A stretch of 61,268 nt of DNA, filler included, from Asterionella formosa (Eukaryota), in assembly GCA_002256025.1 (NCBI GenBank). It is 5 parts of 5 records of this genome, joined end to end, with 100 filler letters (N's around TTAATTAATTAA, not from the genome) between each part and the next. Parts side by side here need not be neighbours in the genome. Positions count along the whole stretch, not along the records: positions 1 to 12,184 come from NKIB01007718.1; 4 more parts are not named here. The stretch is one strand, 5' to 3'. Positions 1-56,236 of the stretch are shown one piece after another; position 1 is the stretch's first letter; each line of letters begins with the position of its first letter. Below the pieces are notes generated by a model. That model had not been told where the DNA came from, did not search any database, and saw only the letters and a program-made list of their open reading frames with translations. The position numbers and the translations under genes are program-made.

Positions 1-208
1 TTGGTACCAGGTAGTAGACTCGAACGTATGTACTCCAATTTCAAGAACATAGCATCAATGGTTATAATGAGTCACAAGGACTGTGGACTCGACTATAGTC
101 CAACGAGTCAAATGGTGCGTTCCCATGTCAAGAAGCTTGCTAATGAGATTCATGTCTTAGATCAATCAGAAGAAGGTTTACATCAACGAAAAGGGAACAC
201 GAAGAACA

Positions 209-426
209 GGTTCTCGAAGTGTGATGAATGGGATTGAAACTTAGTTTTATTTTACGCTTATAATTAAGAAACAGTGAGAATTGACAACAGAGTAAGGTCA
301 ATAGCAAAAACTACTAGCACGAAGGCTACTAGTAGCAGAAAGAAGATAACAATACAAGTGGTACAACAGGTAAGACCTATGTAAGAGGAAACCCGTCAGA
401 AGGAAGGAGTAAGAGACCTTTTAACA
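209..426 (+). repeat. 5' LTR of Copia element 1 (portion shared with the 3' copy)
   Basis: Near-identical to 3616-3825; ends in CA. Confidence 0.85.
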
Positions 427-3022
427 TGCTTTAAAGCGCAGCTTTGAATGCCACAGGCTACTCAGGAATGATGGGAAGTGACAATGACACATCAGTGAGC
501 GAGATTGCTGCCAATGTTCGATGGGCAAGATGCTAAATGGCACATGTGGAAAGCGAATTTTCTCGCATACATGTGCTACAAGAACTTTCAAGGAATACTT
601 AACAGTGACGAACTACCAAGAGGAGAGAAAGACCTAAAGGGTGATACGATCGTGTTGTTGGATGCTGACGAGAGATGCATCCAAAGGAGCAACACAGTTG
701 CTTAAGCAAGTTTGATAATGGCATGCCAGAGTGGGCCATTTGGACATGTAAATAATGCAATAAGTGCCGAGTTTCCTAACGGAAATGCTAAAGAAGCATG
801 GGACAAGCTCATTTCTATGTATGAGTCAGGCAACATGGCGAACGTCATTGCCTTGTCCCACCAATAGACAAAGTGCACTCTAGGGGAAAACGAGAGCCCC
901 AACAGCTGGTGGTATGTGGATTTGGATCGTATCCGGGAACGATTGGGCAATACAAGCTCCGCCGTTTCGGATGGTGCCTATGTGGCACACATGACCAACA
1001 ACCTACCTGAAAGCTACAAGAGTTTGGTAGTAGGCAGGAAGGTTTGGCCTGGCGCACAACACGCTAACGGTCGAAGAGATTAAGACAGACATCCAGGACT
1101 ACTACGATCTATATTTCCGGGATGACGTCAAAACGACTACCGGTACCAAGAACAAGAGTGAACAGGCCTTCTACACAAAAGGGAAGTTCAAAGGTGACTG
1201 TCGTAAGTGTGGCAAGTATGGCCACAAGGCGGCTGACTGTCGCAGCAAGGGCAATAATGCCAACAAGAAGGAGCTCACTCCTGAGCAGAAAGAAAAGAGG
1301 AAAACGGCCGATCAAGTGTTTCAAGTGCCAACGCATGGGACACTATGCAAGTGAGTGCACTAGTAACAGTGCATCTAAAAATAATAAAAGCGAAGAGAAC
1401 AACACGACTNNNNNNNNNNNNNNNNNNNNNNNNNNNNNNNNNNNNNNNNNNNNNNNNNNNNNNNNNNNNNNNNNNNNNNNNNNNNNNNNNNNNNNNNNNN
1501 NNNNNNNNNNNNNNNNNNNNNNNNNNNNNNNNNNNNNNNNNNNNNNNNNNNNNNNNNNNNNNNNNNNNNNNNNNNNNNNNNNNNNNNNNNNNNNNNNNNN
1601 NNNNNNNNNNNNNNNNNNNNNNNNNNNNNNNNNNNNNNNNNNNNNNNNNNNNNNNNNNNNNNNNNNNNNNNNNNNNNNNNNNNNNNNNNNNNNNNNNNNN
1701 NNNNNNNNNNNNNNNNNNNNNNNNNNNNNNNNNNNNNNNNNNNNNNNNNNNNNNNNNNNNNNNNNNNNNNNNNNNNNNNNNNNNNNNNNNNNNNNNNNNN
1801 NNNNNNNNNNNNNNNNNNNNNNNNNNNNNNNNNNNNNNNNNNNNNNNNNNNNNNNNNNNNNNNNNNNNNNNNNNNNNNNNNNNNNNNNNNNNNNNNNNNN
1901 NNNNNNNNNNNNNNNNNNNNNNNNNNNNNNNNNNNNNNNNNNNNNNNNNNNNNNNNNNNNNNNNNNNNNNNNNNNNNNNNNNNNNNNNNNNNNNNNNNNN
2001 NNNNNNNNNNNNNNNNNNNNNNNNNNNNNNNNNNNNNNNNNNNNNNNNNNNNNNNNNNNNNNNNNNNNNNNNNNNNNNNNNNNNNNNNNNNNNNNNNNNN
2101 NNNNNNNNNNNNNNNNNNNNNNNNNNNNNNNNNNNNNNNNNNNNNNNNNNNNNNNNNNNNNNNNNNNNNNNNNNNNNNNNNNNNNNNNNNNNNNNNNNNN
2201 NNNNNNNNNNNNNNNNNNNNNNNNNNNNNNNNNNNNNNNNNNNNNNNNNNNNNNNNNNNNNNNNNNNNNNNNNNNNNNNNNNNNNNNNNNNNNNNNNNNN
2301 NNNNNNNNNNNNNNNNNNNNNNNNNNNNNNNNNNNNNNNNNNNNNNNNNNNNNNNNNNNNNNNNNNNNNNNNNNNNNNNNCCTACGCGAAATCCGCTGTA
2401 GGTAATCAGTACTGGGTCATGGCAGTGGACGACTACACAAGAAAGCGCTGGAGCTATTTCATTAAAAAGAAGAACATCGTCAGAACAGTCAATGAAGATT
2501 TACTACCAGAAGTTTCAGATGATGAGGAAGATGACAACGAAAAGGATAAATCAAGTTCAGACACTGGAACAGCAAAATCTACCTCAAGGAATGATGAAAT
2601 TTTTGACCTTGAAAAGAGAAATGTTTTGAAGCAACAAGCAAAGACTAAATACCCAACTACGCTCCTCCTATCTAGACAGGCAAAGTTGGAACAAGAAATG
2701 AAGAAGTTGGACTCATTGTATAATCCTACTAAAAGTGTTAAGTTCACTCCAGGCACCTCATTACCAAATGTGATTGAGGAGGAAGCTTCTTCGAATAAGG
2801 AAACTGAAGTAAATTTCGTATTCAATGCAAGTCTTACATCGGACCCAGGTTAAACAAATAGTTATGATGAGGCGATGGCAAGACCTGATCGCAAAGAGTG
2901 GATGAAAGCTATAAAGAAAAAATTTGAAAACTTCCAAGCAAGAGGAGTGTGGAAAATAGTTGAGAGAAATGATGTGAACAAGTGAGACAAGGTGGGTCTT
3001 CTGTATCATTAATAAGGAGGAC

Positions 3023-3631
3023 ATGATAACCGGCAAGACAGTATACAAGGCACGGTTGGTCATGAAGGGATATGAACTGATCCCGGGAGTTGATTTTACT
3101 GAGACATTTGCTCCTGTTGTACTAAGTGATGCTACAATAAAAACCGTACTGGCTGTGGTTACTATGTACTACAGTTGGATACTAGTGGAAACAATCGATG
3201 TTGAAGCAGCGTTTTTAAATGCTGACGTCGACAAAGACATTTCTATTGATCCCCCAGAAGGATTGACAGAGATTAACCAGAATACACATATCTGCAAACT
3301 AATTAAGGCTATGTATGGAATTGTACAAGCTCCAAGATGCTGGTCCAAGACATTTGCGAAATGCGTCACCAACAAGACAGGCATAAGAAAAAGCGAAATA
3401 GACCCAATGCTGTTTATCTACCGCAACAACGATGGACAAATTAAAGGGTTATTGGCAAACTACATGGATGATGGAATTATATGTGGTACCAGGAATGCAG
3501 TCGACCACATGAAAAATATGATCAAGGAAGATTTTAAAATCATGGAACAAGGTCCGCTACAAAAACACTTAGGTGTGGAATATATGAGCAAGCACGACAC
3601 ATTTGGAGAATACTGGGTTCTCGAAGTGTGA
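3023..3631 (+). pseudogene. Copia reverse transcriptase fragment, truncated and fused to the 3' LTR
   Basis: RVT_2-type motifs; the ORF runs straight into LTR sequence at 3616 with no RNase H or PPT. Confidence 0.88.
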
Positions 3632-3825
3632 TGAATGGGATTGAAACTTAGTTTTAGTTTAAGCTTATAATTAAGAAACAGTGAGAATTGACAGAGTAAG
3701 GTCAATAGCGAAAACTAGCACAAAGGCTAGCAGCAGAAAGAAGATAACAATACTAGTGGTACAACAGGTAAGACCTACTTAAGAGGAAACCCATCAGACG
3801 GGAAGGAGTACGAGACCTTTTAACA
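3616..3825 (+). repeat. 3' LTR (5'-truncated) of Copia element 1
   Basis: Matches 209-426. Confidence 0.85.
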
Positions 3826-4189
3826 CTCCAACTGGGTCCTGATACCGGTACTCTTGCTTGTTACCAGGGTTACTGATACTGGGTACCGGTAGTACTGGTG
3901 CTCCGTACAGCATTCCGTACCTGGGATACCCAGCAAGGAGAACAGCATACCACCGGTATACGAATTCTATGTTCTTGGCAACTAACGAACGTGGTTGTTG
4001 TGTTACAATTTAGGCCCCGTCTTATGGTGCCCGATATGACACGACAATAACAAATGGTTGGTATGATCCACACAGGAGAGATTGCACCAATCTTCTGTGC
4101 AAGGACCTCGAGTTGCTTCTGCTGGCTGCTCTCTTCACTCTAGCAACTGGTGCTTCCCATTTGTATGTTTACATTCAAAGTGACATCTC

Positions 4190-4530
4190 TAAAGAGGTAC
4201 AACGCAAATTTTTCATTCACTGGACTTCAAAGTTTGCAGAAAAGAAGGATGAATATGTATACATCATACTGAGAGAGGAAGATGATGACCAACTGCACCG
4301 AATTCTTAATGACTACAGTTCCCTTGGGCCTACAGGGTGTGGTAAAGGCTCAGTCGATTGTGTGCAAATTGGGTGGAATCAATGTCCAGCCTACCAGAAG
4401 AATATATTTAAAGGTTCCAAGGGTGTCCTTCAGTTGTTTTTGAGGTGGTTTCTGATCACAGAAGAAATATTTTATCAATCAGCTACCTACACCCAGGAAC
4501 AAGAAATGACAAACACATATTGGTACCACA
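4190..4530 (+). pseudogene. PIF/Harbinger-type (plant-transposase-like) transposase fragment
   Basis: GPTGCGKGSVDCVQIGWNQCPAYQKNIFKG resembles the G.PGC.GS.DC.H..W..CP motif of PIF/Harbinger transposases; frameshifted afterwards. Confidence 0.65.
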
Positions 4531-5030
4531 GGTATGCATTATCCAGTCTACCAGTACTAGGTTACTTACCCTATGTAAACTCTAACAAACCCCAAATAGA
4601 CTATCAGTACCTAATAGGCTATCAGACTTGAAGCAACCTATAAGCAATGTAATAAGAATCCACAGTATTCAGGGTGATGGAGAAAACTGGACTATTTTTG
4701 CATTGATGTCAGTACCCTGGTAGAAGAGTTTACCAGTGGTCTATTTTTTTGTACTTATCATGCAATGTATGTACAACAGTTCCTGCAAACAGCAATGCTT
4801 GGCAAAAAATGAGTATCATTGGGAACTAGACCAACGCTATAGACATAAAAAAGAATGGAAGTGTCTTAAGCTAAACTAGCAGTTGATAACCATGTATAAT
4901 GAAGTGTGCTAATACAACTAACATTTGGAGATGCATGTTTATAATACCTTTTTTGATATACTACCTGCGACTCTCTGGCAATTTACATTTCAGTTTTCGA
5001 TTGTGCGATTGTGCGGGCAGGTCTGTTTGT

Positions 5031-6510
5031 TTACATACAATTACGGTAACTTGCTGTCAACTCTGCGGCACGTGCCTTGGCAGCCGGGGTAGTTCCCAAC
5101 CAGTATCCTGCATGGACATTCGACTCCAGTTCCCAAAAATGCAAGGGCGATGTTTCCAACTTGCCTGTCAATGCCTCCACACCATCTGGTGTAATCAGTA
5201 GAGTGTGTTCGAATTGAGCTGATCGACCACCATCCACTGTTGTGGCTGTCCATTCATCTGGCCATGTTAGTGCCTTGGCTGAATTTTGAAAATAAACCGA
5301 AAAAGGTCTCGTCGTAAGCAAATAATCCTACAATAGGTGCACACAACTATCATATCATGTGCTTGTACGTACCAGTTCCTTCACAAATCATAGGCTCAAT
5401 GGTAAATGTATGTCCTGCAGCCATTTGTCCATTTGGTTCATTATTCCGATAATGCAAAATATTTGGTGTCGTATGAAAGACACTTCCAATTCCATGTCCA
5501 CAGAAGTTCTTGACAGTCGAAAAGCCCTTCTCGACCACATAATCTTCAATAATGGCCCCAATATCTTTGTAATCCTTGCCCGGTTCCACAAAATTCATGG
5601 CTGACACCCAACAATCATAGGTACATTGGATCAATTTTTTGGCAGCTTCGTCGGGAGTTCCAGCAACAAACATTTCCGAACAATCTCCATGGTAGCCATC
5701 CAAGTAGCATGTAATGTCTAGATTGACCACATCACCTTCTGCCAAGGGACGATCATCGGGGATGCCATGGCAAATAACTTCATTAACAGAGGTGCAACAT
5801 GATTTTGGAAAGCCATGATAGTTGAGGGGCGAAGGATATGCTCCTCTCTGAGTGGCACAATGTATTAGAAATATTCTTAGAACGGTCAACAACCCTTATA
5901 TTGAAAACAAGGAGCGTACCTTTAACGTTTCCGCATGAACCAACGAGTCAATTTCATCCGTAGTAATCCCCACCCGAACCGCTCGTCCCGCAATGTCCAA
6001 AACCTCTCTTGCCACTCGTCCAGCAGCTCTCATTTTTTCAATTTCTTCGGGTGTTTTCACTTCCACAATCCATGGCATCATGATTTGTCGTTTAGATTTG
6101 GGCTAATTTATTCATGTGAATTTCGATAAAAAATGGAGTTGTTGAGAAAAAAGCCATACGAACAAAGGATTTATTGAAACAAGACCACGTACCACACCAT
6201 CGTCACTATAATCTGGTTTCACAATAGTCTCCACATCGACTCGTTTCTGTGGTGACTGTGTTCCAGGCCGAATGGCTCCGGCATATTTGAATGTTGTTAG
6301 TTGCAAGTCTCGCAAAGCTCCAGCAAATCCTTTTGGTTTTGCTCTTGCAGCTGACTTTTTGTTGGTCGATTTCTTGTCATAAAGTCGAGTGGCAGTTGGC
6401 GCTGTTGAGAGACGAGACGGACAAAAGGCATCCACACGACAGAAGGAACCCATGAGCATGAAAACAAAATAAGAAAGGACTGGCATCATGCAAAGAAATC
6501 GCATCATCAT
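5031..6510 (-). CDS. map: Methionine aminopeptidase type 1, plastid-targeted; 4 exons (6510-6193, 6102-5920, 5847-5373, 5278-5031)
   Basis: Motifs [53 protein letters not shown]. Three GT-AG introns join the exons in frame. Signal peptide followed by VDAF. Confidence 0.95.
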
Positions 6511-8747
6511 TTTAATGATCGTGGATTGTATATTTACTTGGGAGAGATGAGTAGATTGAATTCAAATGCTTTTGACCTAGATCCAATGTATTTGATGACA
6601 ATGATGAAAGCAATTCTTTTGTTGATGAGCAAATCCAAAATGATCCAATCCCATGGTGGCCAACAATCGAATCGAACACTCAGTCACAAAAAAACAGCTG
6701 GCAGTACTATAGTATGTGGACTAGCTGTATAATACATATATTTTATTGCGAGACTACAATAAAATAGCTAACAACTATAGAATATCGGGACGTACGCACC
6801 AGGACCGGTATTCTTTCTCATTGTACGCACTGCAAAATTACATGTATGTACATATATACAAGAGTAGCTAATGGTGGACCGGTATGTAGTGTACGTGCAG
6901 CCACAAGCCCGTAGTCCATTCGAACACACCATGCAACATGTTGTGCTTCAAACTAGATGCGACTAAAAGGGTAATTGATTTTGTTGGTAAAAAGAATTCG
7001 AATTGTTTAGAGCAAAATTAATCTTTTTTTGCAGCCATCGAGAGCAAGGACATAACAAGGGATTGATCGAAAAATGATTTCCTTCATTTGTTTGGCTGAG
7101 CAATGAAGAACTTGAAAATTGTAGAGTAACAATAATATGATTTCCGACTTTAAGATCTGGTATGTTGTTTTGATGTAAAACCATCATATACAAGTAGTTT
7201 CATCATGATGAAGCTATCATATCATTAGTACACAAGGTACTGTTGTCAGCCACCATCATAATGAGCCTTCTGATTCAAGCAACATTTATTCTACTACTAA
7301 CTGAGATGTTTTGCCCCTCTTTTCCATAGTGCTGTTGACCTCAAAGTACACCAACATCATGCCAAGAATGTTTTTTTACAGAAAGAAATCAAGGAGTTGT
7401 CTACAATTAAATGCAGTTATTCGATATCGACGAAAAACGCTTATCAACAGGGCGGTTGCAAGCACCACTTCATCCAGCAACCAACAAGCAGTGTCACCCA
7501 AACATTAAGCAACACTATTCCTATTAGTTAAATGCTCCCTCTGTTCCGCTTTATTTGCAACCAAACTTTAGGTCACTGCCTCCTCTCATGAAGGGCAAGC
7601 TCCAATAATTCTGCAGCTAATAGACCCTCCTGTTAAAAAATTATTGTGAATTGAAAGGTGGTGTGCGTGTATATTACATGTTCTAATAATTTGTCAAAGC
7701 ATCCAAATGTAAACAGAAGAAAGTAAGCTAGTACTATAACAGCAATGCTATTAGCACCACTGGTAAGTACCACCCTCTCTCACCATGAAGGGCGATGTAT
7801 ATTTGCAGTACGCCATCAAATGAGTCCGTTTCAGCGCCACTGCAGCTACACACCAGTATACACCACGCTTCAATCAGATGAAAGAAAAATAAGAATTAAC
7901 AACAAGAAACTCATGAAGATAGACCAAAGTGACAACCGAAATCCACCCAGCATCATCATTAAATTGAGTAAGGCTTTTGACAATGTCCACGCATCCAAAT
8001 CAGATCCAGACAGACCGTTTCCCGTCCCCCAATACCTACACAGTACATACTTAACAACAAACAGATTATATACTGTACAAAGATATGAGAAAACTTGAGC
8101 AACAGTAATTTCGGAGAGAGGAGCACAATATCTCAAAATGCAAGAAAATACCTCAAGGTATGATAATTACTATGTACTGACTATCATGTACATACTAATT
8201 ATCTTTGTTCATTTTTCTACGAAATCTTGGGCTTGATACGGTCATTTTACAGTTTAACATAGACATACATTTAGACATTCAACAGTACACTGCTTATTCT
8301 TTGGGCAACTAAAATTTTCGCATCGCCTATGTGCAAGGATGGTAATGGACCCTGCAGTCTCCCCTTTCTTGTATTATATGGTGTGCGGAGCCTTCATTAC
8401 ATGAAGAGTGAGCAAGTGAACTGAAGTTCTGTGAACCTTGCTCATCTTCATTTGCCTTTCCCAGGCAATGCGAAAAGAAAATTTGCTCCATTTTACGTTG
8501 GTTTTGCATGACCCTGTGATATGACTTTGGAAGTACATTGTATTCCATTGGAGTTCTGCATGGGCTGTAGAGGATTGAGTGATGCACACTATCGTCGCTG
8601 CTGCTTACTAGCTCACTACTATTCTTACTAGTAGGGCGCTAGTCTGGTGATTTGGATGCAGTAGTGCTTTCTTTTGTGCCTGTTTAGTCCCATGTTTAGT
8701 ATTTCCCAAGTACTGGGGGGGGGGGCTGTAAAACCTTGATGTGTAAT

Positions 8748-9160
8748 GGTCAAGGCAACAACTGTGGAGGAATCACTGCTGTCCTTGAATCGTACAAGAA
8801 GGAAAATATCTTTAATTTCACGCAACATTCGATGTACCTACTTGGCATAGACTGTCGACCAGAAGACGACTCTTTGGTAGCTGTACTAACAACCGAGAAT
8901 TTTTGATGAATCATGCGCACAGACAGCAATTCTGGGGCAATTCAATCTTCTTTGCTGCAGATGCATCTTACAGGCTGACACAAGAAGGAAATGGCGTTTT
9001 TCCAGTGATTACAACCAACTTGGCTCAACAAACAAAAACGATTGCATATGGAGTGATAAGCCATGAACACCACAAAGCGCAAAGATTCATATTTGCGTCG
9101 ATTAAGTATGCCTTGGAAGAGCTCGTTAGATATAGGAAAACTAATTATATTCCTATCTAG
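8748..9160 (+). pseudogene. Mutator/MULE transposase N-terminal catalytic half (first Asp)
   Basis: FTQHSMYLLG...LTTENF.MN.AHRQ...FFAADASYRLTQEG...TKTIAYGVISHE resembles the MULE D1 region; small frameshift near 8900. Confidence 0.65.
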
Positions 9161-9188
9161 TAATGACAACTATTATAATCACTACCTA

Positions 9189-10800
9189 CTAGTAAGCCTT
9201 TCTAAATATAGTCATCCTTTGCTTAATATCTAGTAAGTTACCTCCACATTTCCCATTTTGGATTCTTCCAGAACCTTTATTCTTAATACTAGGCTTTGGA
9301 TGCATTGTCTTTGGAAAGATTGAATTAATTCCACGGTCAAATGCAAAAGCACATGAATGTTTACACCACGCGTTTGCTAAATACGTGTGACAATGGCAAA
9401 ATATGAGGCCTTCATTGCCCATTGCTTTCAAGCTATTAATCGAAATGGGTCCCAATATACACGCTCCCAAAATTCCTAAAAATTTAGTTAGAGCAACATC
9501 ATCATTTTCACTCTTGGACACAATAGGTTCAATAAGGTGAAAGAAACCTGTGGGTGAGAGAAAGGAAATCATCATGTGTGGTCAACAGAATAGTGTTCAG
9601 GATTTCGGAGAAGTCACTTGTACTCATCATGCATTTGGTTCCTCTTTATCAATTGCATAACCACAGTTAGTGCAGTAACTGATTCTGCGTTCCTGATATA
9701 AAGATATCTCTTTCGAGATTGTGATAGTTGACTGCGCTGTCCCGATATAAAGATATCTCTTTCGAGATTGGCTTGTGATAGTTGACTGTGCCTTGACAAT
9801 ACAGTTGCAGTACTCTGGGACTGCATTGTTTGCATAGAGGACATAATATTTAGGTCCAAAAATGATAATGTCGCAATCAACAATGAACCCTCTCCGATTC
9901 TAATTGCATCACACTTGAAATCAAATGTCACTGTGAGAAATGTGGATTCTCCATTTTGGCTTTCTCAAGAAGCTTATAAATCGACTTGTAGAAATTGATT
10001 GAGTGTATTGATGAGTGTCTGTAAAGTGGAGCAAAATGATGGATCCCCTTTGGAACAATCCTCTAACATGTAAGACATGTTATGAATGAAGTTAGCCGTT
10101 AAAGACTTCCTGTGGTCAAAGAATGATTTATCACCACTGTTGATGCCCTCTGAATTGTTGTTGTATGCAGGCAAGCCACCACGAAGTAGATTGGAACTGT
10201 TCAATTCAATTGTGGTGTGAATGGTGGGACCCCATTGTTTCAACCATGCAGTCGCAACTTTCTTTTCCTTGTATGTGTTGATCCACTTGAAAATCATCAA
10301 ATCGCGAAGGATTGCTGGAACTAGCTGTATCCTGGGACTTCTTTTATACGCCTCGAAGTCTTCACCCATTCTCTTTTTGTTTTTGTCGTATTTCTTGAAC
10401 TTTCCTCTATGTTTCTTTACCCATGCATTCCAGGCATGATAAGAGCACATACAAAATGTAAATTCGGCGTTTGGCCAAATCTTCTTGACAGCCTTGTGAC
10501 AAGCTAAAGTATAATCAGTCATTGTCTGTTTGATAAAGTCTGGTGAGTCCGGTTCCCAGCACCAAGGAGTGTCGCCAAGGGGAAGAGGAAAATGGTCAGT
10601 GCATACTGGAGTGTTGCCTGCAGGTGACAATGGTAGGATGGAAAAGTTTATGGGGTCTATCCCTTCTTTCCAGAAGAAGAAGCACTATCGTCTGACAAAC
10701 TATCTCCTGAACTATCTCCTGAACTCTGCAAGATGCTATCATCCTCCTCAGAGGAGGAATTGTGAGATGAAGACGAAGAACTAGACTTTTGACAAAAAGT
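9189..10800 (-). pseudogene. Mutator/MULE transposase C-terminal half (second Asp, CxxH, Glu, SWIM finger)
   Basis: TMTDYTLACHKAVKKIWP...CMCSYHAW (D2 and CxxH), NNNSEGINSGDK (catalytic E), CHCHTYLANAWCKH (SWIM). Acidic Ser/Asp-rich leader at about 10660-10800. Several stops and frameshifts. Confidence 0.75.
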
Positions 10801-11095
10801 AACAATGCATGGATACATACAGCAATTCCAAGTATAATGCCAAAATGTATGATGTGGACTTTTATTGCCAGGTAGTAGTAATGACAGACCTACAGGATTA
10901 CATGTGAATTCCAACTGTTGGTACAACACATGAATATAGTGATGTATATCATATATTCTTGGCATACTAAATACTACTGGGGAGTACTACCAGTACTTGC
11001 ATGTGTGTTTGTACAGCTGCCTGTGGTATGGGGTTGATGAGACCACAGCAACTCCATCTTGACCACCATGACGAAATTATGGATTTGAATATCTT

Positions 11096-11259
11096 CGTCT
11101 GCAAATAAAAACTATCATGAATATAGGATCAAGGGTATCATATGCTTAGTGGCACATGATTTTTACATATATGATAGTTTTTCGATCAAAAATATAATCA
11201 ATGTATCATATAATTATGATCATGCAGTAAACTTTTACCAAACTTGAAGTATGATAATA
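11096..11259. repeat. Dispersed AT-rich repeat, copy 1 (probable transposon end)
   Basis: Aligns by eye with 28694-28860 (cgtctgcaaataaaaa.tatcatg.atataggatcaag...cttgaagtat). Confidence 0.8.
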
Positions 11260-12184
11260 CTATCATAGTTATTATACAGTTAAGCATGGTCCTATGATGT
11301 GTATACTTTTGTCATACATCTATCTTAGCATGATCGTAATTCTCATCGATATCATGTCTAAAATAGGATGAAATTTATCGAAATTTAGAACTAAATTTAA
11401 GAATGGTTTTATGTTGCTTTCTATATCTTGAGTGGCTAGTACAGAATGTTCTACAATGCTCTCATCGCAATGATTGGTGCTTCAGCTTTCACTTCCACCT
11501 TCCCCCAATCCAATTCTGAAGGTTGTTGTAGTAGCGCTGGTTGCCTTGCCGTTGTTTCCCTGCTTTGTTCCATTTACTCCTGACGGATCTGAGTTTGCAT
11601 TCACGCATTTTCACATTACTATTGAATCCGTTTCGTTGTTCCAATCAGCCATACTAACAAAGAGAAGCAATTCATGATTGTTAGCTGTTCATGTTTTGTT
11701 TACAAAACAACATGCATTTCGCTTCTATCTTCATTTACCACAAATTGAGGAAGTAACTGATGCATATTTCTGTAAAAGAATGTGGCAGTTGAAGATTGAA
11801 TGAGAAAGAAATGAGCTCCAACGCTACTGTTTGTAACTTACAAATACTGTTTGTCTACCATTATCCTGAAAGAAGCAGCACATATTTGTCAGTTTTTCTT
11901 ACAGTTGTGGATTGATCCAAAGATGATATCACTTACTGATTTCTTTGTCCACATTGATGGTTGGCCAAACACCAAATCGAAAAGGAGCCATTGAATCACT
12001 GAAAGGGGACGATTCCGTACTTTATCCTGGCATTTTGTCTTGACATGCCGTGATACTATGCACGACAGCTTGTTGATACCGTCCTTCTCCATCATATTCA
12101 CTCATTCTTAGCCGCATGGTGTATCATTGTTGTGTTGTCACTTCAGTTTTTCGCATCATGTGTTGCTTGAGATCCTTCATTTCA

Positions 12185-16241: not shown

Positions 16242-18493
16242 AGGGGTGATCTTAACAGAGATAAAAATATTTTATCATTTTATTCTTGTATCTTCAAGAA
16301 CATGAATCTTTACAGAGATGCATTTCACCAAAATATCAAAGTAACAGCAAAACAGTTTGCTGTTTTTTAATGTCTCTGTCACAGTAGTTGGTTGAGCACA
16401 TTGCCTTTTATCTGAAGTTGTGTGATTCAATTCCCCCAATTTTTTTGAGAAGCAATTGTTGGGTTTGACTTCCACACTCCTTTCTGTCCCACATGGTCTT
16501 GCCTGGTGCTGTGCAAGAAATAGTGGGTTGCTTGTGCCACCTTCTTCCTAGGCAGTTGGAGTTTCCCCTAATGCTACAGCAAAGACAACCACCTTTTGCA
16601 AAAGGTGGTTAGGGACTCACATATGCTAACAAAACAAGGAAATCACAGGTCTTGTTGGCAGTTAGCACAATGAAAGACTTGCCTAGTAATAGGGGAGTAC
16701 AATGGGCTATAAAACATACTATCCTTTTGCTATGCATCAGACTCAGCAAAAATAATAGCAATGTGCGCTCCAAACATACAACCTGTCTGAAAATCATCAT
16801 TACTCAAATGAAAATGACAAATCGACAAGAAGAACCTGACATTTGGGCTGTCATTAAAAATCTTGATTTAGAACAGGAAATATAAGCAGAACAACAGAGC
16901 TTTCTGTTACTTGCAGCAAGCAAAATGGGAGTATCAATAACTTGACTGGTATGATCAAATCAGAAAGCTTCTCCCTGAGAGTAGTTTTCATCATGAATAT
17001 TGCATGTCTCTTCAAGCTTTCAATCACCCACTGGAACTACTTTGATCTTCTATCACAGTTTATTCTGTCAAATCAAATGCAAGTTTTGGCTTATACAGCT
17101 CAAATCAGCATATTTATCCTGAGTTGACCCTTGCCATCAGACTTCGCTGGCTTGCAGGCGGAAACCTCATAGACATTTGTCATGTCTATGCNNNNNNNNN
17201 NNNNNNNNNNNNNNNNNNNNNNNNNNNNNNNNNNNNNNNNNNNNNNNNNNNNNNNNNNNNNNNNNNNNNNNNNNNNNNNNNNNNNNNNNNNNNNNNNNNN
17301 NNNNNNNNNNNNNNNNNNNNNNNNNNNNNNNNNNNNNNNNNNNNNNNNNNNNNNNNNNNNNNNNNNNNNNNNNNNNNNNNNNNNNNNNNNNNNNNNNNNN
17401 NNNNNNNNNNNNNNNCAGGATGAATGGATTCCTTGAAAAAGCGAGCAGCAACTATTTTGTGGATGCATTGGTGCTATAGATGGATATTTACAGCCTATTT
17501 CTAAACCAAGAAAAAGGATTGTGGTGGCTTCCCTCAAGCATATTGGTCTGGGCATTATATGTCATATGGATTGAAAGTTCAAGCTGTTTGAGACAGTTAT
17601 TGCTGTTTCCTATAATTTAGTGTCGTGGCACAAGGAAAATGTCCAGATCAGAAGGCATTTGAAAGAGCAAAAACTATTCAGTTTGTATCCAACAACCTTC
17701 GTCCAAGACAATATGTAGTAGGTGATGCTGCTTTCACATTGACTGATCAAGTGCTCCGTCCATTTGTTGGAAGTCAAAGGGAATCAACAAACAAAGATGC
17801 ATACAACTATTTCCTTTCACAACTACGCATTAGAATTGAGATGACGTTTGGATTGCTCATCAATAAATGAAGGATCCTGAGGAAATCCTTGTCCTTCAGG
17901 ATGAAGAAATCAGTTGCAATTCTTTCTGCTTGTGCCCGCTCACACCATTTTTGCCTACTCATGGATGATGATAAAAAGAAAGAACTTGCTAATGGAATGA
18001 AATTTCTGACTAGTTTGGAGCTTGTTGATCCAATGCCCAATGCTCCTCTCATCTTTCTAATATCAGGCGATTGGATGTAGTACAAGGTACTTCACAAATT
18101 CGGCAAATTATTCTTGATGATGTCACCAAAAATGGGTTTAGACGGCCTCCAGCTAATGTGTTGCGCCGACGACGTGAACTGACTGAAATTGGAATTATTC
18201 ATGGCTAAATGTCCTTGCATCCAGCTCACACATAGTTGGTGAATTCCTAAGGTCCAAAACATCTTGACGATGTTTCTGATCGAAGAAGACATTTATTACT
18301 CAGTAGTATGTTCCGTGCTTCTTTATATATTTGAGAGTAGTTGCAGCATTTCTTTCTTTCTTATCCTTGGGAGTTCATCCATGTTTCTTAATGATTATCT
18401 GGGCTTTTTCAGAATCATAATCATAATCCATTAAAAAATCGACAGGGACTGGAGATGAAAAGGCAGACAATTAGGAAGGAGATAATTAGGAAT
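16242..18493 (+). mobile_element. PIF/Harbinger DNA transposon (degenerate): left TIR, DDE transposase (+), ORF2 remnant (-)
   Basis: TIR-like aggggtgatcttaacagagataaaaat matches the reverse complement of 40300-40329. Transposase motifs LAIRLRWLAGG, GCIGAIDG, VGDAAF, YNYFLSQLRIRIEMTFGLL. Homologous to 37830-39490. Confidence 0.88.
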
Positions 18494-52745: not shown

Positions 52746-53866
52746 AGCAAACAATTTGGACACTTGGATAACCCGGAGGTAATGAGNNNNNNNNNNNNNN
52801 NNNNNNNNNNNNNNNNNNNNNNNNNNNNNNNNNNNNNNNNNNNNNNNNNNNNNNNNNNNNNNNNNNNNNNNNNNNNNNNNNNNNNNNNNNNNNNNNNNNN
52901 NNNNNNNNNNNNNNNNNNNNNNNNNNNNNNNNNNNNNNNNNNNNNNNNNNNNNNNNNNNNNNNNNNNNNNNNNNNNNNNNNNNNNNNNNNNNNNNNNNNN
53001 NNNNNNNNNNNNNNNNNNNNNNNNNNNNNNNNNNNNNNNNNNNNNNNNNNNNNNNNNNNNNNNNNNNNNNNNNNNNNNNNNNNNNNNNNNNNNNNNNNNN
53101 NNNNNNNNNNNNNNNNNNNNNNNNNNNNNNNNNNNNNNNNNNNNNNNNNNNNNNNNNNNNNNNNNNNNNNNNNNNNNNNNNNNNNNNNNNNNNNNNNNNN
53201 NNNNNNNNNNNNNNNNNNNNNNNNNNNNNNNNNNNNNNNNNNNNNNNNNNNNNNNNNNNNNNNNNNNNNNNNNNNNGCAGTAGTTTGGTGATTTGGGTTG
53301 CACAGGATGAACCCTCAATTACTTTAATTCTGTAGATTGCTGGCTTAATTGTTTGTCCTTCACAACAATATGGTGAAGTCACTGTTATTTTACCTCTAGG
53401 GAGAATAAGTAAATTCCCTTGTGGGTAGTCCTAGTCCGTGATGAGTATTGCGATATTGTCCACAGTGGTACAAAGCCAAGCTTTCTCCTTGATGCATTGC
53501 TATGATAGCATCCCTGAAGAGTGGAGGACATTCACACGGGACCAAGAATCTGGCACATACTGCATGTTGTCAATGCCCTCCATTCCACGACTTGGCAAAT
53601 TCATTGATTTAACAAGCACACGTCTCGCTACAACGACGAGGATTCAAGTGCTACTTGTGTTTGCTCAGCTTCGAAGGATTTAAAAAATTATTGTCACTTC
53701 CTCTCAGAATTCTGTTGAATGAATCATGTCCTTATCCGGCACACATGCACTGTTTTACTCTTTCATCAATTAAATCGTCTCCATATGGCACCCTAATAGT
53801 TGCGCAACGATAAAACGTTAAAAAGAAAATTGAAAAGGAGGAACATGATGGGTACTATATAGAGTA

Positions 53867-55359: not shown

Positions 55360-56236
55360 TCATCTGTGTGTGTCAGCTTGTTGGGAGGCATTGGTTGCGG
55401 CAATCATGTCCCTTTCTTCCAAAATGATTCCTTCCGAAGCGAATGTCGCAACAACTGGCCTAAATAAATAGCGTGGAAGAATGGAATCTGTATATCGATC
55501 ACGTACTATGATCCCTCGGATCATGTGTGGTTTGGCTCCAAATGGATTCAAGATAATGTCAGCGTAACAGCGAAGCGTAGTAATTCTATTGTCGTTTGTC
55601 TTGACAGCAAGTCCATNNNNNNNNNNNNNNNNNNNNNNNNNNNNNNNNNNNNNNNNNNNNNNNNNNNNNNNNNNNNNNNNNNNNNNNNNNNNNNNNNNNN
55701 NNNNNNNNNNNNNNNNNNNNNNNNNNNNNNNNNNNNNNNNNNNNNNNNNNNNNNNNNNNNNNNNNNNNNNNNNNNNNNNNNNNNNNNNNNNNNNNNNNNN
55801 NNNNNNNNNNNNNNNNNNNNNNNNNNNNNNNNNNNNNNNNNNNNNNNNNNNNNNNNNNNNNNNNNNNNNNNNNNNNNNNNNNNNNNNNNNNNNNNNNNNN
55901 NNNNNNNNNNNNNNNNNNNNNNNNNNNNNNNNNNNNNNNNNNNNNNNNNNNNNNNNNNNNNNNNNNNNNNNNNNNNNNNNNNNNNNNNNNNNNNNNNNNN
56001 NNNNNNNNNNNNNNNNNNNNNNNNNTTGAACCTGATGGCGGCACCTGTTCCTCCCAATAGACCATTGTAGTCGTTCTTGAATCATCCTTTTCTATGTGTA
56101 CCGTCGGTTGTAGTGATTTATTGTTATTGTTGTTCGTATCGGCTCGGTTCGCTTCAATGGTAGAAATTAACATCAGGCATACGAACGAAAAGAATAATGC
56201 TACTATCGGTAGCTTCCATTGATGGACGGGCTTCAT
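55360..56236 (-). CDS. Hypothetical secreted or membrane-anchored protein spanning an assembly gap
   Basis: Hydrophobic N-terminus (LPIVALFFSFVCLMLI) before the gap and an open frame after it; no domain recognised. Confidence 0.45.

Follow-up and report, generated by a model that had tools for sequence, protein, structure and literature searches.

A degenerate Mutator-like element in Asterionella formosa and its relatives point to a DDE transposase probably divided between two convergent genes

A DDE transposase, like its relatives, is usually regarded as one catalytic polypeptide. In Tn7, TnsA and TnsB form a heteromeric transposase, and transposition needs two different catalytic polypeptides, each of which has a complete active site of a different fold, neither being a fragment of one fold. 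ProtoRAG, with its RAG1–RAG2 pair, is bounded by terminal inverted repeats (TIRs), and its activity requires both of its two convergent genes; of the two products, RAG2 has an accessory role and a different fold, and the entire DDE domain lies in RAG1. Among the Mutator-like elements (MULEs), mudrA and mudrB of MuDR are transcribed convergently from the TIRs. Here we analysed a MULE copy between positions 8748 and 10800 of a 61,268-nt stretch of DNA from Asterionella formosa (hereafter the window), in which the N-terminal and C-terminal halves of the transposase (N-half, C-half) lie tail to tail on opposite strands. The best explanation of this copy and its relatives is probably a bipartite MULE family with two convergent genes inside TIRs, the products of which would rebuild one DDE active site.

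MuDR has two genes, mudrA and mudrB, and the MULE classes tabulated in the part of the same source available to us have one transposase open reading frame (ORF), the extra ORFs of some classes being different proteins; its 'MULE-Diatoms' class has one ORF, with a SWIM finger (PMC6446971). The family described here shares with MuDR and other MULEs the DDE triad (D1, D2 and E) with a C/DxxH motif ~20 residues after D2, here CxxH, which in this family is spread over two genes, and its members carry a C-terminal SWIM finger, an N-terminal WRKY/GCM1-type zinc finger and long TIRs of ~200 nt. Unlike MuDR and the classes in that table (PMC6446971), its second gene appears to be the other part of the catalytic domain. 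An active MULE of Phaeodactylum tricornutum has 3707 bp, TIRs of ~200 bp, 9-bp target site duplications and two ORFs, one annotated as MULE plus SWIM and the other (Phatr3_J50367) as a diatom-specific, UBR-type zinc-finger E3 ligase-like protein; the available portion of that report makes no mention of a split DDE domain and does not give the orientation of the two ORFs (bioRxiv 10.1101/2023.01.02.522487). In MULEs generally, target site duplications of 8–11 bp are a further mark of the superfamily. No MULE with a DDE domain divided between two genes was found described in the literature searched, with subscription journals and Repbase mostly outside it, and a family with D1 in one gene and D2 and E in another appears to be undescribed there.

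The first-pass annotation had described the window copy as a transposase split into two convergent ORFs, and this layout was confirmed, the + strand frame stopping at 9160 and the − strand frame at 9189. The parts of the copy, placed against two protein relatives, P0004 for the N-half (gene A) and P0001 for the C-half (gene B), are as follows.

8739..9160, + strand: gene A remnant (N-half), the last ~139 codons, from tblastn of P0004 residues 205–343 at 53–69% identity in two frames
9161..9188, no strand: spacer of 28 bp between the convergent stops
9189..9581, − strand: C-terminal part of gene B, 53% identical to P0001 residues 412–519
9590..10600, − strand: core of gene B (C-half), 48% identical to P0001 residues 103–402
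9680..9791, no strand: tandem repeat in gene B, with 42-nt units spaced 49 nt and a 19-nt pair spaced 54 nt
10657..10986, − strand: Ser/Asp-rich leader of gene B, with a possible Met near 10815

On the + strand, the open frame 8816–9160 carries FFAADASYRL, IAYG and the terminal RKTNYIPI before the stop TAG (9158–9160). The gene A remnant holds an ENLLLNAYRQ-like motif, strands 1–3 with D1 (GAT, 8960–8962) and helix 1, with a frameshift near 8897–8903; because it begins only at P0004 residue 205 (8739), the zinc-finger and helix-turn-helix (HTH) part of gene A is missing. On the − strand, the core of gene B carries FPLP..W.WEP, D2 (10516–10514), CxxH (10447–10436) and E (10150–10148), and the SWIM-type CxC...CxH finger lies at 9398–9354. 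The first-pass annotation had this half reading from about 10800; its strand and its stop at 9189 stand, whereas a single open frame does not, since the core has three in-frame stops (codons at 9976, 9967 and 9616) and, compared with P0001, one frame at 10600–9590 is followed by a frame shift for 9560–9234. The last open frame is 9581–9189, with the stop TAG at 9191–9189, and the tandem repeat inserts about 31 residues relative to P0001. The acidic Ser/Asp-rich leader that had been proposed for this half is present as a Ser-rich leader (21 S, 6 D and 2 E among 54 residues from a Met) and is in a separate frame from the core. The copy had been called degenerate, correctly in view of its 5′ truncation, in-frame stops, frameshifts and tandem-repeat insertion; judged by its sequence, it is a dead, truncated and mutated transposon fragment. 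In a Pfam comparison, the + strand ORF matched the MULE profile PF10551 at positions 4–66 of 99 (E 0.0068, 17.3 bits) and the − strand ORF 9974–10684 matched positions 66–93 (E 0.059, 14.2 bits); both matches lie below the 27.6-bit cut-off, yet they abut at one profile position.

We compared contigs from public runs (X1, X2, X3 and X20) with the window at ≥90% identity. The junction between the halves was bridged by a contig from another study (X3 record 29, 9116–9296) with 0 differences, and in a fourth run by a ~10% diverged contig (X20 record 20, 9035–9311; 17 differences and 10 gaps). On 6000–12184 there were 38,741 X1 contig pieces, and the X1 summed depth rose from ~550–610 at 8277–8690 to 28,000–170,000 at 8691–10967, a level 50–300× higher over the element than over the flank, where summed contig depth is not equal to copy number. 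Many similar copies of the element exist, and the repeat behaves as multi-copy in four runs. One X1 contig has a joint from 9024 to 10356 with 2 extra letters, a deletion derivative in which an N-half remnant is fused to the middle of the C-half. The metatranscriptome contigs of X20 cover both halves and the junction, with a depth of 0 on the single-copy flank 8277–8690; this coverage was not counted as expression, because DNA carry-over of a multi-copy repeat would look alike.

Protein relatives of each half were then compared. With the C-half ORF as query, the relative found among longer proteins was P0001 (522 aa, 58% identity), which has a Met start and an acidic leader and is without the D1 region. 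With the N-half ORF, P0002–P0006 (328–377 aa, 52–70% identity) were found, each with a Met start, an acidic leader and a CCHH finger, and each ending within a few residues of the stop of the window ORF. The C-half matched 137 clusters at E ≤ 0.001 when cluster representatives were searched exhaustively, and an N-half profile search gave 21 proteins. Among the 159 proteins together, the N-half profile matched 23 and the C-half profile 137, and both profiles were matched by one protein only, P0086. This protein of 859 aa is collinear, with the N-half at 143–411, the C-half at 424–850 and a join of ~12 residues. Of the N-half proteins, 17 of 23 end ≤9 residues past the end of the profile and four are fragments, and P0007 runs 125 residues further beyond it. 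Among the C-half proteins, 77 have a Met start and a match that begins no later than profile position 45; in these the stretch before the match has a median length of 14 residues, and it is ≤125 residues long in 75 of them, the exceptions being P0086 (423) and P0099 (263). At E ≤ 0.1, the Pfam MULE profile was matched by 11 of 27 N-half members, with a best E of 4.9e-5, and by 3 of 36 on the C-half side, and not by the collinear P0086. A Pfam SWIM match was seen in 6 of 36 C-half members (best E 6.9e-4). One C-half relative, P0139 (498 aa), has an N-terminal 3′–5′ exonuclease domain (PF01612, E 1.6e-13), which may be a fusion or a gene-model artefact.

A single scan of metagenomes with the N-half alignment gave 56 loci, or 39 clusters when grouped at ≥80% nucleotide identity. 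Several loci have introns of ~90–100 nt with GT..AG ends, and for this reason we regard the related metagenome loci as eukaryotic genomic DNA. Among the 49 loci with a match reaching profile position ≥335, a stop follows within 12 codons in 47 and the other two leave the contig; thus the canonical single-polypeptide form of a MULE was not found at any of the 47 testable loci, all of which have a stop after helix 1. The C-half lies downstream on the opposite strand, tail to tail, in 14 of the 56 loci (10 of the 39 clusters, at 24–42% identity to P0004), with spacers of 39–821 bp between the convergent ORF ends. Recurrence of the layout beyond the window copy, which the first-pass annotation had proposed as a check, is seen in these clusters as well as in the bridging of the junction in independent runs. 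On these sequences, the convergent split layout is common to many relatives in aquatic eukaryotic DNA, and it is very probably native to the family rather than private to the window copy.

Several of these loci showed other features. L032–L034 (contigs of 6.7–8.3 kb) keep the RNase H part of the N-half (profile positions 213–341) without the zinc-finger part, and the C-half was not found within 6–7 kb downstream. At L043 (1213–2952), the N-half frame also holds an upstream fragment of a ubiquitin C-terminal hydrolase (PF00443, E 2.2e-11, positions 155–246 of 254), which may be a captured or adjacent piece of a host gene. Among viral contigs, pattern matches with alignment A5 (the closer set) numbered 44, of which not one was confirmed.

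The first-pass annotation had also pointed to TIR-bounded elements as the setting in which to look for the convergent layout, and three such elements were seen, with the gene pair lying between the TIRs and one TIR running to the contig end in each.

L025, 1–201 and 3474–3674: TIRs of 201 nt, 98% complementary
L007: TIRs of 198 nt, 98% complementary
L018: TIRs of 198 nt, 97% complementary

In L025 (~3.7 kb) both genes are intact, each with its start codon just inward of a TIR. Gene A, which has a GT..AG intron, begins near the left TIR at ATG 240; gene B, an uninterrupted ORF of 559 aa, begins near the right TIR at ATG 3469. In L007 and L018, gene B is present as a deletion derivative, with profile positions ~107–377 missing from the C-half. 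TIRs were not visible for the window copy, the left side of which is truncated and the right side adjoined by another repeat. The beginning of gene B in L025 (3469–3300, − strand), like residues 1–60 of P0086, is Cys/His-rich and not an acidic leader of the P0001 type, and the leader region therefore varies among lineages.

The catalytic residues are conserved across both half-families, the alignments of which have a mean column identity of only 17–22%. D1 is Asp in all 61 aligned N-half sequences (65 sequences, four with gaps). Among the aligned C-half sequences, D2 is Asp in 96 of 98, the Cys of CxxH is kept in 101 of 104, its His in 103 of 106 and the catalytic E in 105 of 108. In the N-half, the zinc-finger residues C102, C110, H134 and H137 are also conserved. 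Most pairs available for the ratio of nonsynonymous to synonymous substitution rates (dN/dS, omega) were identical or saturated, and four N-half pairs were informative, with omega of 0.20 (L032/L036), 0.13 (L019/L038, with dS near saturation), 0.41 (L046/L048) and 0.37 (L024/L017). As judged from these pairs, the N-half is under purifying selection. A dN/dS below 1 on both halves had been put forward as a check; the four N-half pairs bear it out for that half, and the C-half is without an informative pair.

We then considered predicted structures of the two halves. The AlphaFold2 model of the N-half (predicted local distance difference test, pLDDT, 77.3) has a strand-rich zinc-finger domain and a three-helix module, followed by three strands and a long helix (E274–277, E289–296, E302–310 and H315–339). 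Residues 50–137 of this model aligned at middling Z with AFT2 (Z 6.3, root-mean-square deviation (rmsd) 3.0, 74 aligned) and with WRKY33 (Z 5.2, rmsd 4.1, 76 aligned), and other WRKY domains gave Z 4.8 and 4.2. In the C-half model of P0001 (pLDDT 77.8, predicted template modelling score 0.73), the leader 1–96 is predicted to be disordered and is followed by E126–131 ending at D132, H135–144, E149–154 and then CxxH, a helical region, and the helix 250–262 bearing E253. The models thus give the order of an RNase H-like fold, with strands 1–3 and helix 1 on one chain and strand 4, a helix, strand 5 and the E helix on the other; this order of predicted elements suggests that the halves are complementary parts of one such fold. 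In the models, the fold is divided between helix 1 and strand 4.

The best structural match of C-half residues 116–296 was ISCth4 (Z 5.4, rmsd 5.5, 158 aligned; the next row had Z 3.0). ISCth4 (IS256 family, PDB 6xgx) resembles the C-half in the order of D2, CxxH and E and in its helical insertion domain, and the spacing D132–C155–H158–E253 of P0001 (D-23-CxxH-94-E) is similar to that of D241–C262/H265–E348 in the part of the ISCth4 report available to us (PMC7780238). It differs in being a single ORF that also holds D175, in being prokaryotic with a copy-out/paste-in mode, and in having an HTH and no WRKY or SWIM part. In a Foldseek search of the PDB, neither half had a match at E ≤ 0.001; ISCth4 was top for the C-half (E 1.2), and the most probable row for the N-half was one of RAG1 (probability 0.75, E 0.077). 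A sequence search of the PDB gave 0 hits with the A2 profile and only chance-level rows (E 0.047 or worse) with the A3 profile, and when P0086 was aligned together with the two half-families (A4), the N-half rows were misaligned, at 8–15% identity.

To co-fold the halves, residues 95–522 of P0001 and 195–343 of P0004 were used. The co-fold score was 0.77 (0.78, 0.77 and 0.75 in the separate runs), compared with 0.02 for the best of three controls. Of 78 solved complexes, 51 reach the mark for such scores, as do 2 of 108 mismatched pairs; for eukaryotes, the figures are 39 of 65 for solved pairs without a like older complex and 2 of 126 for unrelated pairs. The runs share ≥75% of contacts, and the partner chain has a pLDDT of ≥77. 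The predicted interface comprises C-half residues 125–132, 249, 251–252 and 255 and N-half residues 271–279, that is, the D2- and D1-bearing strands, with D1 and D2 included, and residues flanking E253, which is not itself listed. Co-folding of the halves had been suggested in the first-pass annotation, and the pair passes the controls with both aspartates in the interface. We consider it rather likely that the two products form one active site.

On these observations, the normal layout of the family is very probably two convergent genes, each beginning just inside a long TIR. Gene A encodes an acidic leader, then a CCHH zinc finger of the WRKY/GCM1 type and a DNA-binding module of three helices, followed by strands 1–3 with D1 and helix 1, and it ends at a conserved stop. 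Gene B encodes a disordered leader and a conserved (P)RED..PLP..W.WxP segment, followed by strand 4 with D2, strand 5, CxxH with the helical insertion, the helix bearing the Glu and, at the C-terminus, a domain that contains the SWIM finger. We propose that the two products complement each other in one fold and so form a single DDE active site, which would support cut-and-paste transposition of the element. Because one collinear relative exists, the split was probably created by an ancient inversion; the ancestor would have been P0086-like, and the break would have fallen in the linker of ~12 residues that joins helix 1 to strand 4.

Several observations weigh against this proposal. At the 23 loci with ≥600 bp downstream of the N-half stop, the C-half was present in 12 and absent in 11, and by cluster (n=16) the same loci divide into eight with and eight without it; no C-half was found at a domain E ≤ 1 in L005, L015, L031, L032–L034, L041, L046, L049, L052 or L053, and the 615-aa convergent ORF of L015 is no relative of the C-half (hhalign probability 0.1). 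In L012 (1–2880), a C-half ORF (1–1200, + strand) lies upstream of the N-half ORF (1538–2824, + strand) on the same strand, with insufficient room for an inverted partner between the two, and L035 weakly shows a same-strand upstream C-half. The sole varying C-half pair, with 11 differences, gave an uninformative omega of 0.76. No Pfam match reaches the gathering score, where each half can cover only part of the MULE profile. The co-fold used single sequences without alignments, the chains belong to separate clusters, and two parts of a single fold may pass it through likeness to solved single-chain structures. Finally, the collinear relative could supply activity in trans.

The last point underlies the main rival explanation, in which the ancient inversion killed the transposase and the elements, now non-autonomous, are moved in trans by a collinear transposase of the P0086 type, with the half-genes decaying or taking new roles, for example as DNA-binding regulators or inhibitors. 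The existence of P0086, the 11 of 23 well-flanked loci without a C-half and the known deletion derivatives (the C-halves of L007 and L018 and the 9024-to-10356 joint in X1) are consistent with it. We nevertheless consider it unlikely, as D1, D2, CxxH and E are kept in 96–100% of aligned members despite the low column identity, stops and starts are conserved among lineages only 24–54% identical, the N-half omega is 0.13–0.41, L025 has both genes intact between 98% complementary TIRs, and collinear proteins amount to one in 159. The first-pass annotation had named collinear close relatives as evidence against a bipartite transposase, and the only relative of this kind is distant, P0086 being 31% identical in the C-half. 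P0086 also shows that a fused protein is viable, which bears on the idea that the halves are joined into one collinear polypeptide, either post-transcriptionally or by programmed DNA inversion; nothing speaks for such joining directly. It appears very unlikely, since nearly all members keep the gene A stop and the gene B Met with its own leader, inversion of gene B would leave a stop and the leader between the halves, and a joint in collinear order is absent among the joints listed, where contigs drop rare forms.

It would be extremely improbable that the pair represents two domesticated host genes derived from a MULE and no longer mobile. Conserved ORFs, purifying selection on the N-half and the loci with an N-half only would fit such genes, whereas near-identical TIRs of ~200 nt flank the gene pair, the repeat behaves as multi-copy in four runs and the copy in the window is itself a pseudogene. 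A local inversion confined to the window copy, or a misassembly of it, is barely credible: the copy is degenerate and the same piece of the window contains an N gap (1410–2380), but in another study a contig crosses the junction with no differences, a contig of a fourth run crosses it at ~10% divergence, and an identical layout is found in 10 independent locus clusters, on which grounds this explanation was rejected. The inversion that the first-pass annotation had offered as its alternative thus probably holds as the ancient evolutionary origin of the split, and not as an event private to this copy. Its preferred alternative, a naturally bipartite transposase, is supported by the recurrence of the layout, the TIR setting, the N-half dN/dS and the co-fold.

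The surroundings of the window copy were also analysed. The window is a composite of five pieces of ~12.2 kb each, joined by linkers of the form N44-TTAATTAATTAA-N44 with stops in all frames, and the split copy sits in the first piece (1–12184). The remaining features are as follows.

8759..8811, no strand: left boundary of the repeated DNA, where the window copy is truncated at its 5′ end; single-copy contigs of three runs end there
11096..12184 (beginning about 10968–11096), no strand: different repeat, adjoining or interrupting the right side of the element, from summed depth
12185–12284, 24468–24567, 36751–36850 and 49013–49112: linkers between pieces
1410–2380, 17192–17415, 52787–53276 and 55617–56025: further N gaps

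At the left edge, contigs end at 8758 (X1 record 5), 8811 (X3 record 28) and 8836 (X2 record 12), and the depth is single-copy up to about 8690–8811, upstream of the element. Two stretches further upstream, 6828–7034 and 7656–8276, have a raised X1 summed depth of up to 170,000 and are for this reason taken as other repeats, and 8277–8690, between them and the element, looks single-copy. The right-side repeat is non-coding, with an X1 summed depth of ~1,000,000, about ten times that of the MULE, and it shows sharp break points at 11096 and 11278 and internal skips of 506 nt; at 11096 there are loose ends on both sides, with a consensus of 0.94 behind and 0.39 before. Because this different repeat adjoins or interrupts the right side, the right TIR of the element is not visible in the first piece. 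No second copy was found by tblastn of the five ORFs against the whole window.

The split is kept across lineages only 24–54% identical and inside intact TIR-bounded elements. If a bipartite transposase is indeed assembled from the two halves, the RNase H-like fold would tolerate natural fission between helix 1 and strand 4, and transposition would have a built-in two-key control, with each gene read inward from its own TIR; the pair would also be a natural template for split, inducible transposase tools. Annotation would change as well, as the name of MULE transposase is likely to be given to gene B alone, with gene A taken for a zinc-finger protein that has some other function. L025, with ~3.7 kb, 201-nt TIRs and two genes, fits the size and the TIRs given for the active Phaeodactylum MULE in the available portion of its report, and by analogy Phatr3_J50367 may be its gene A, which we regard as a lead only. 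It is slightly better than an even chance that a widespread eukaryotic MULE lineage is a natural split transposase working by fold complementation, of which the jumping Phaeodactylum MULE may be an example. If so, the 'E3 ligase-like' ORF of Phaeodactylum would be the D1-bearing half, and the proof of activity for the family would already exist, unrecognized.

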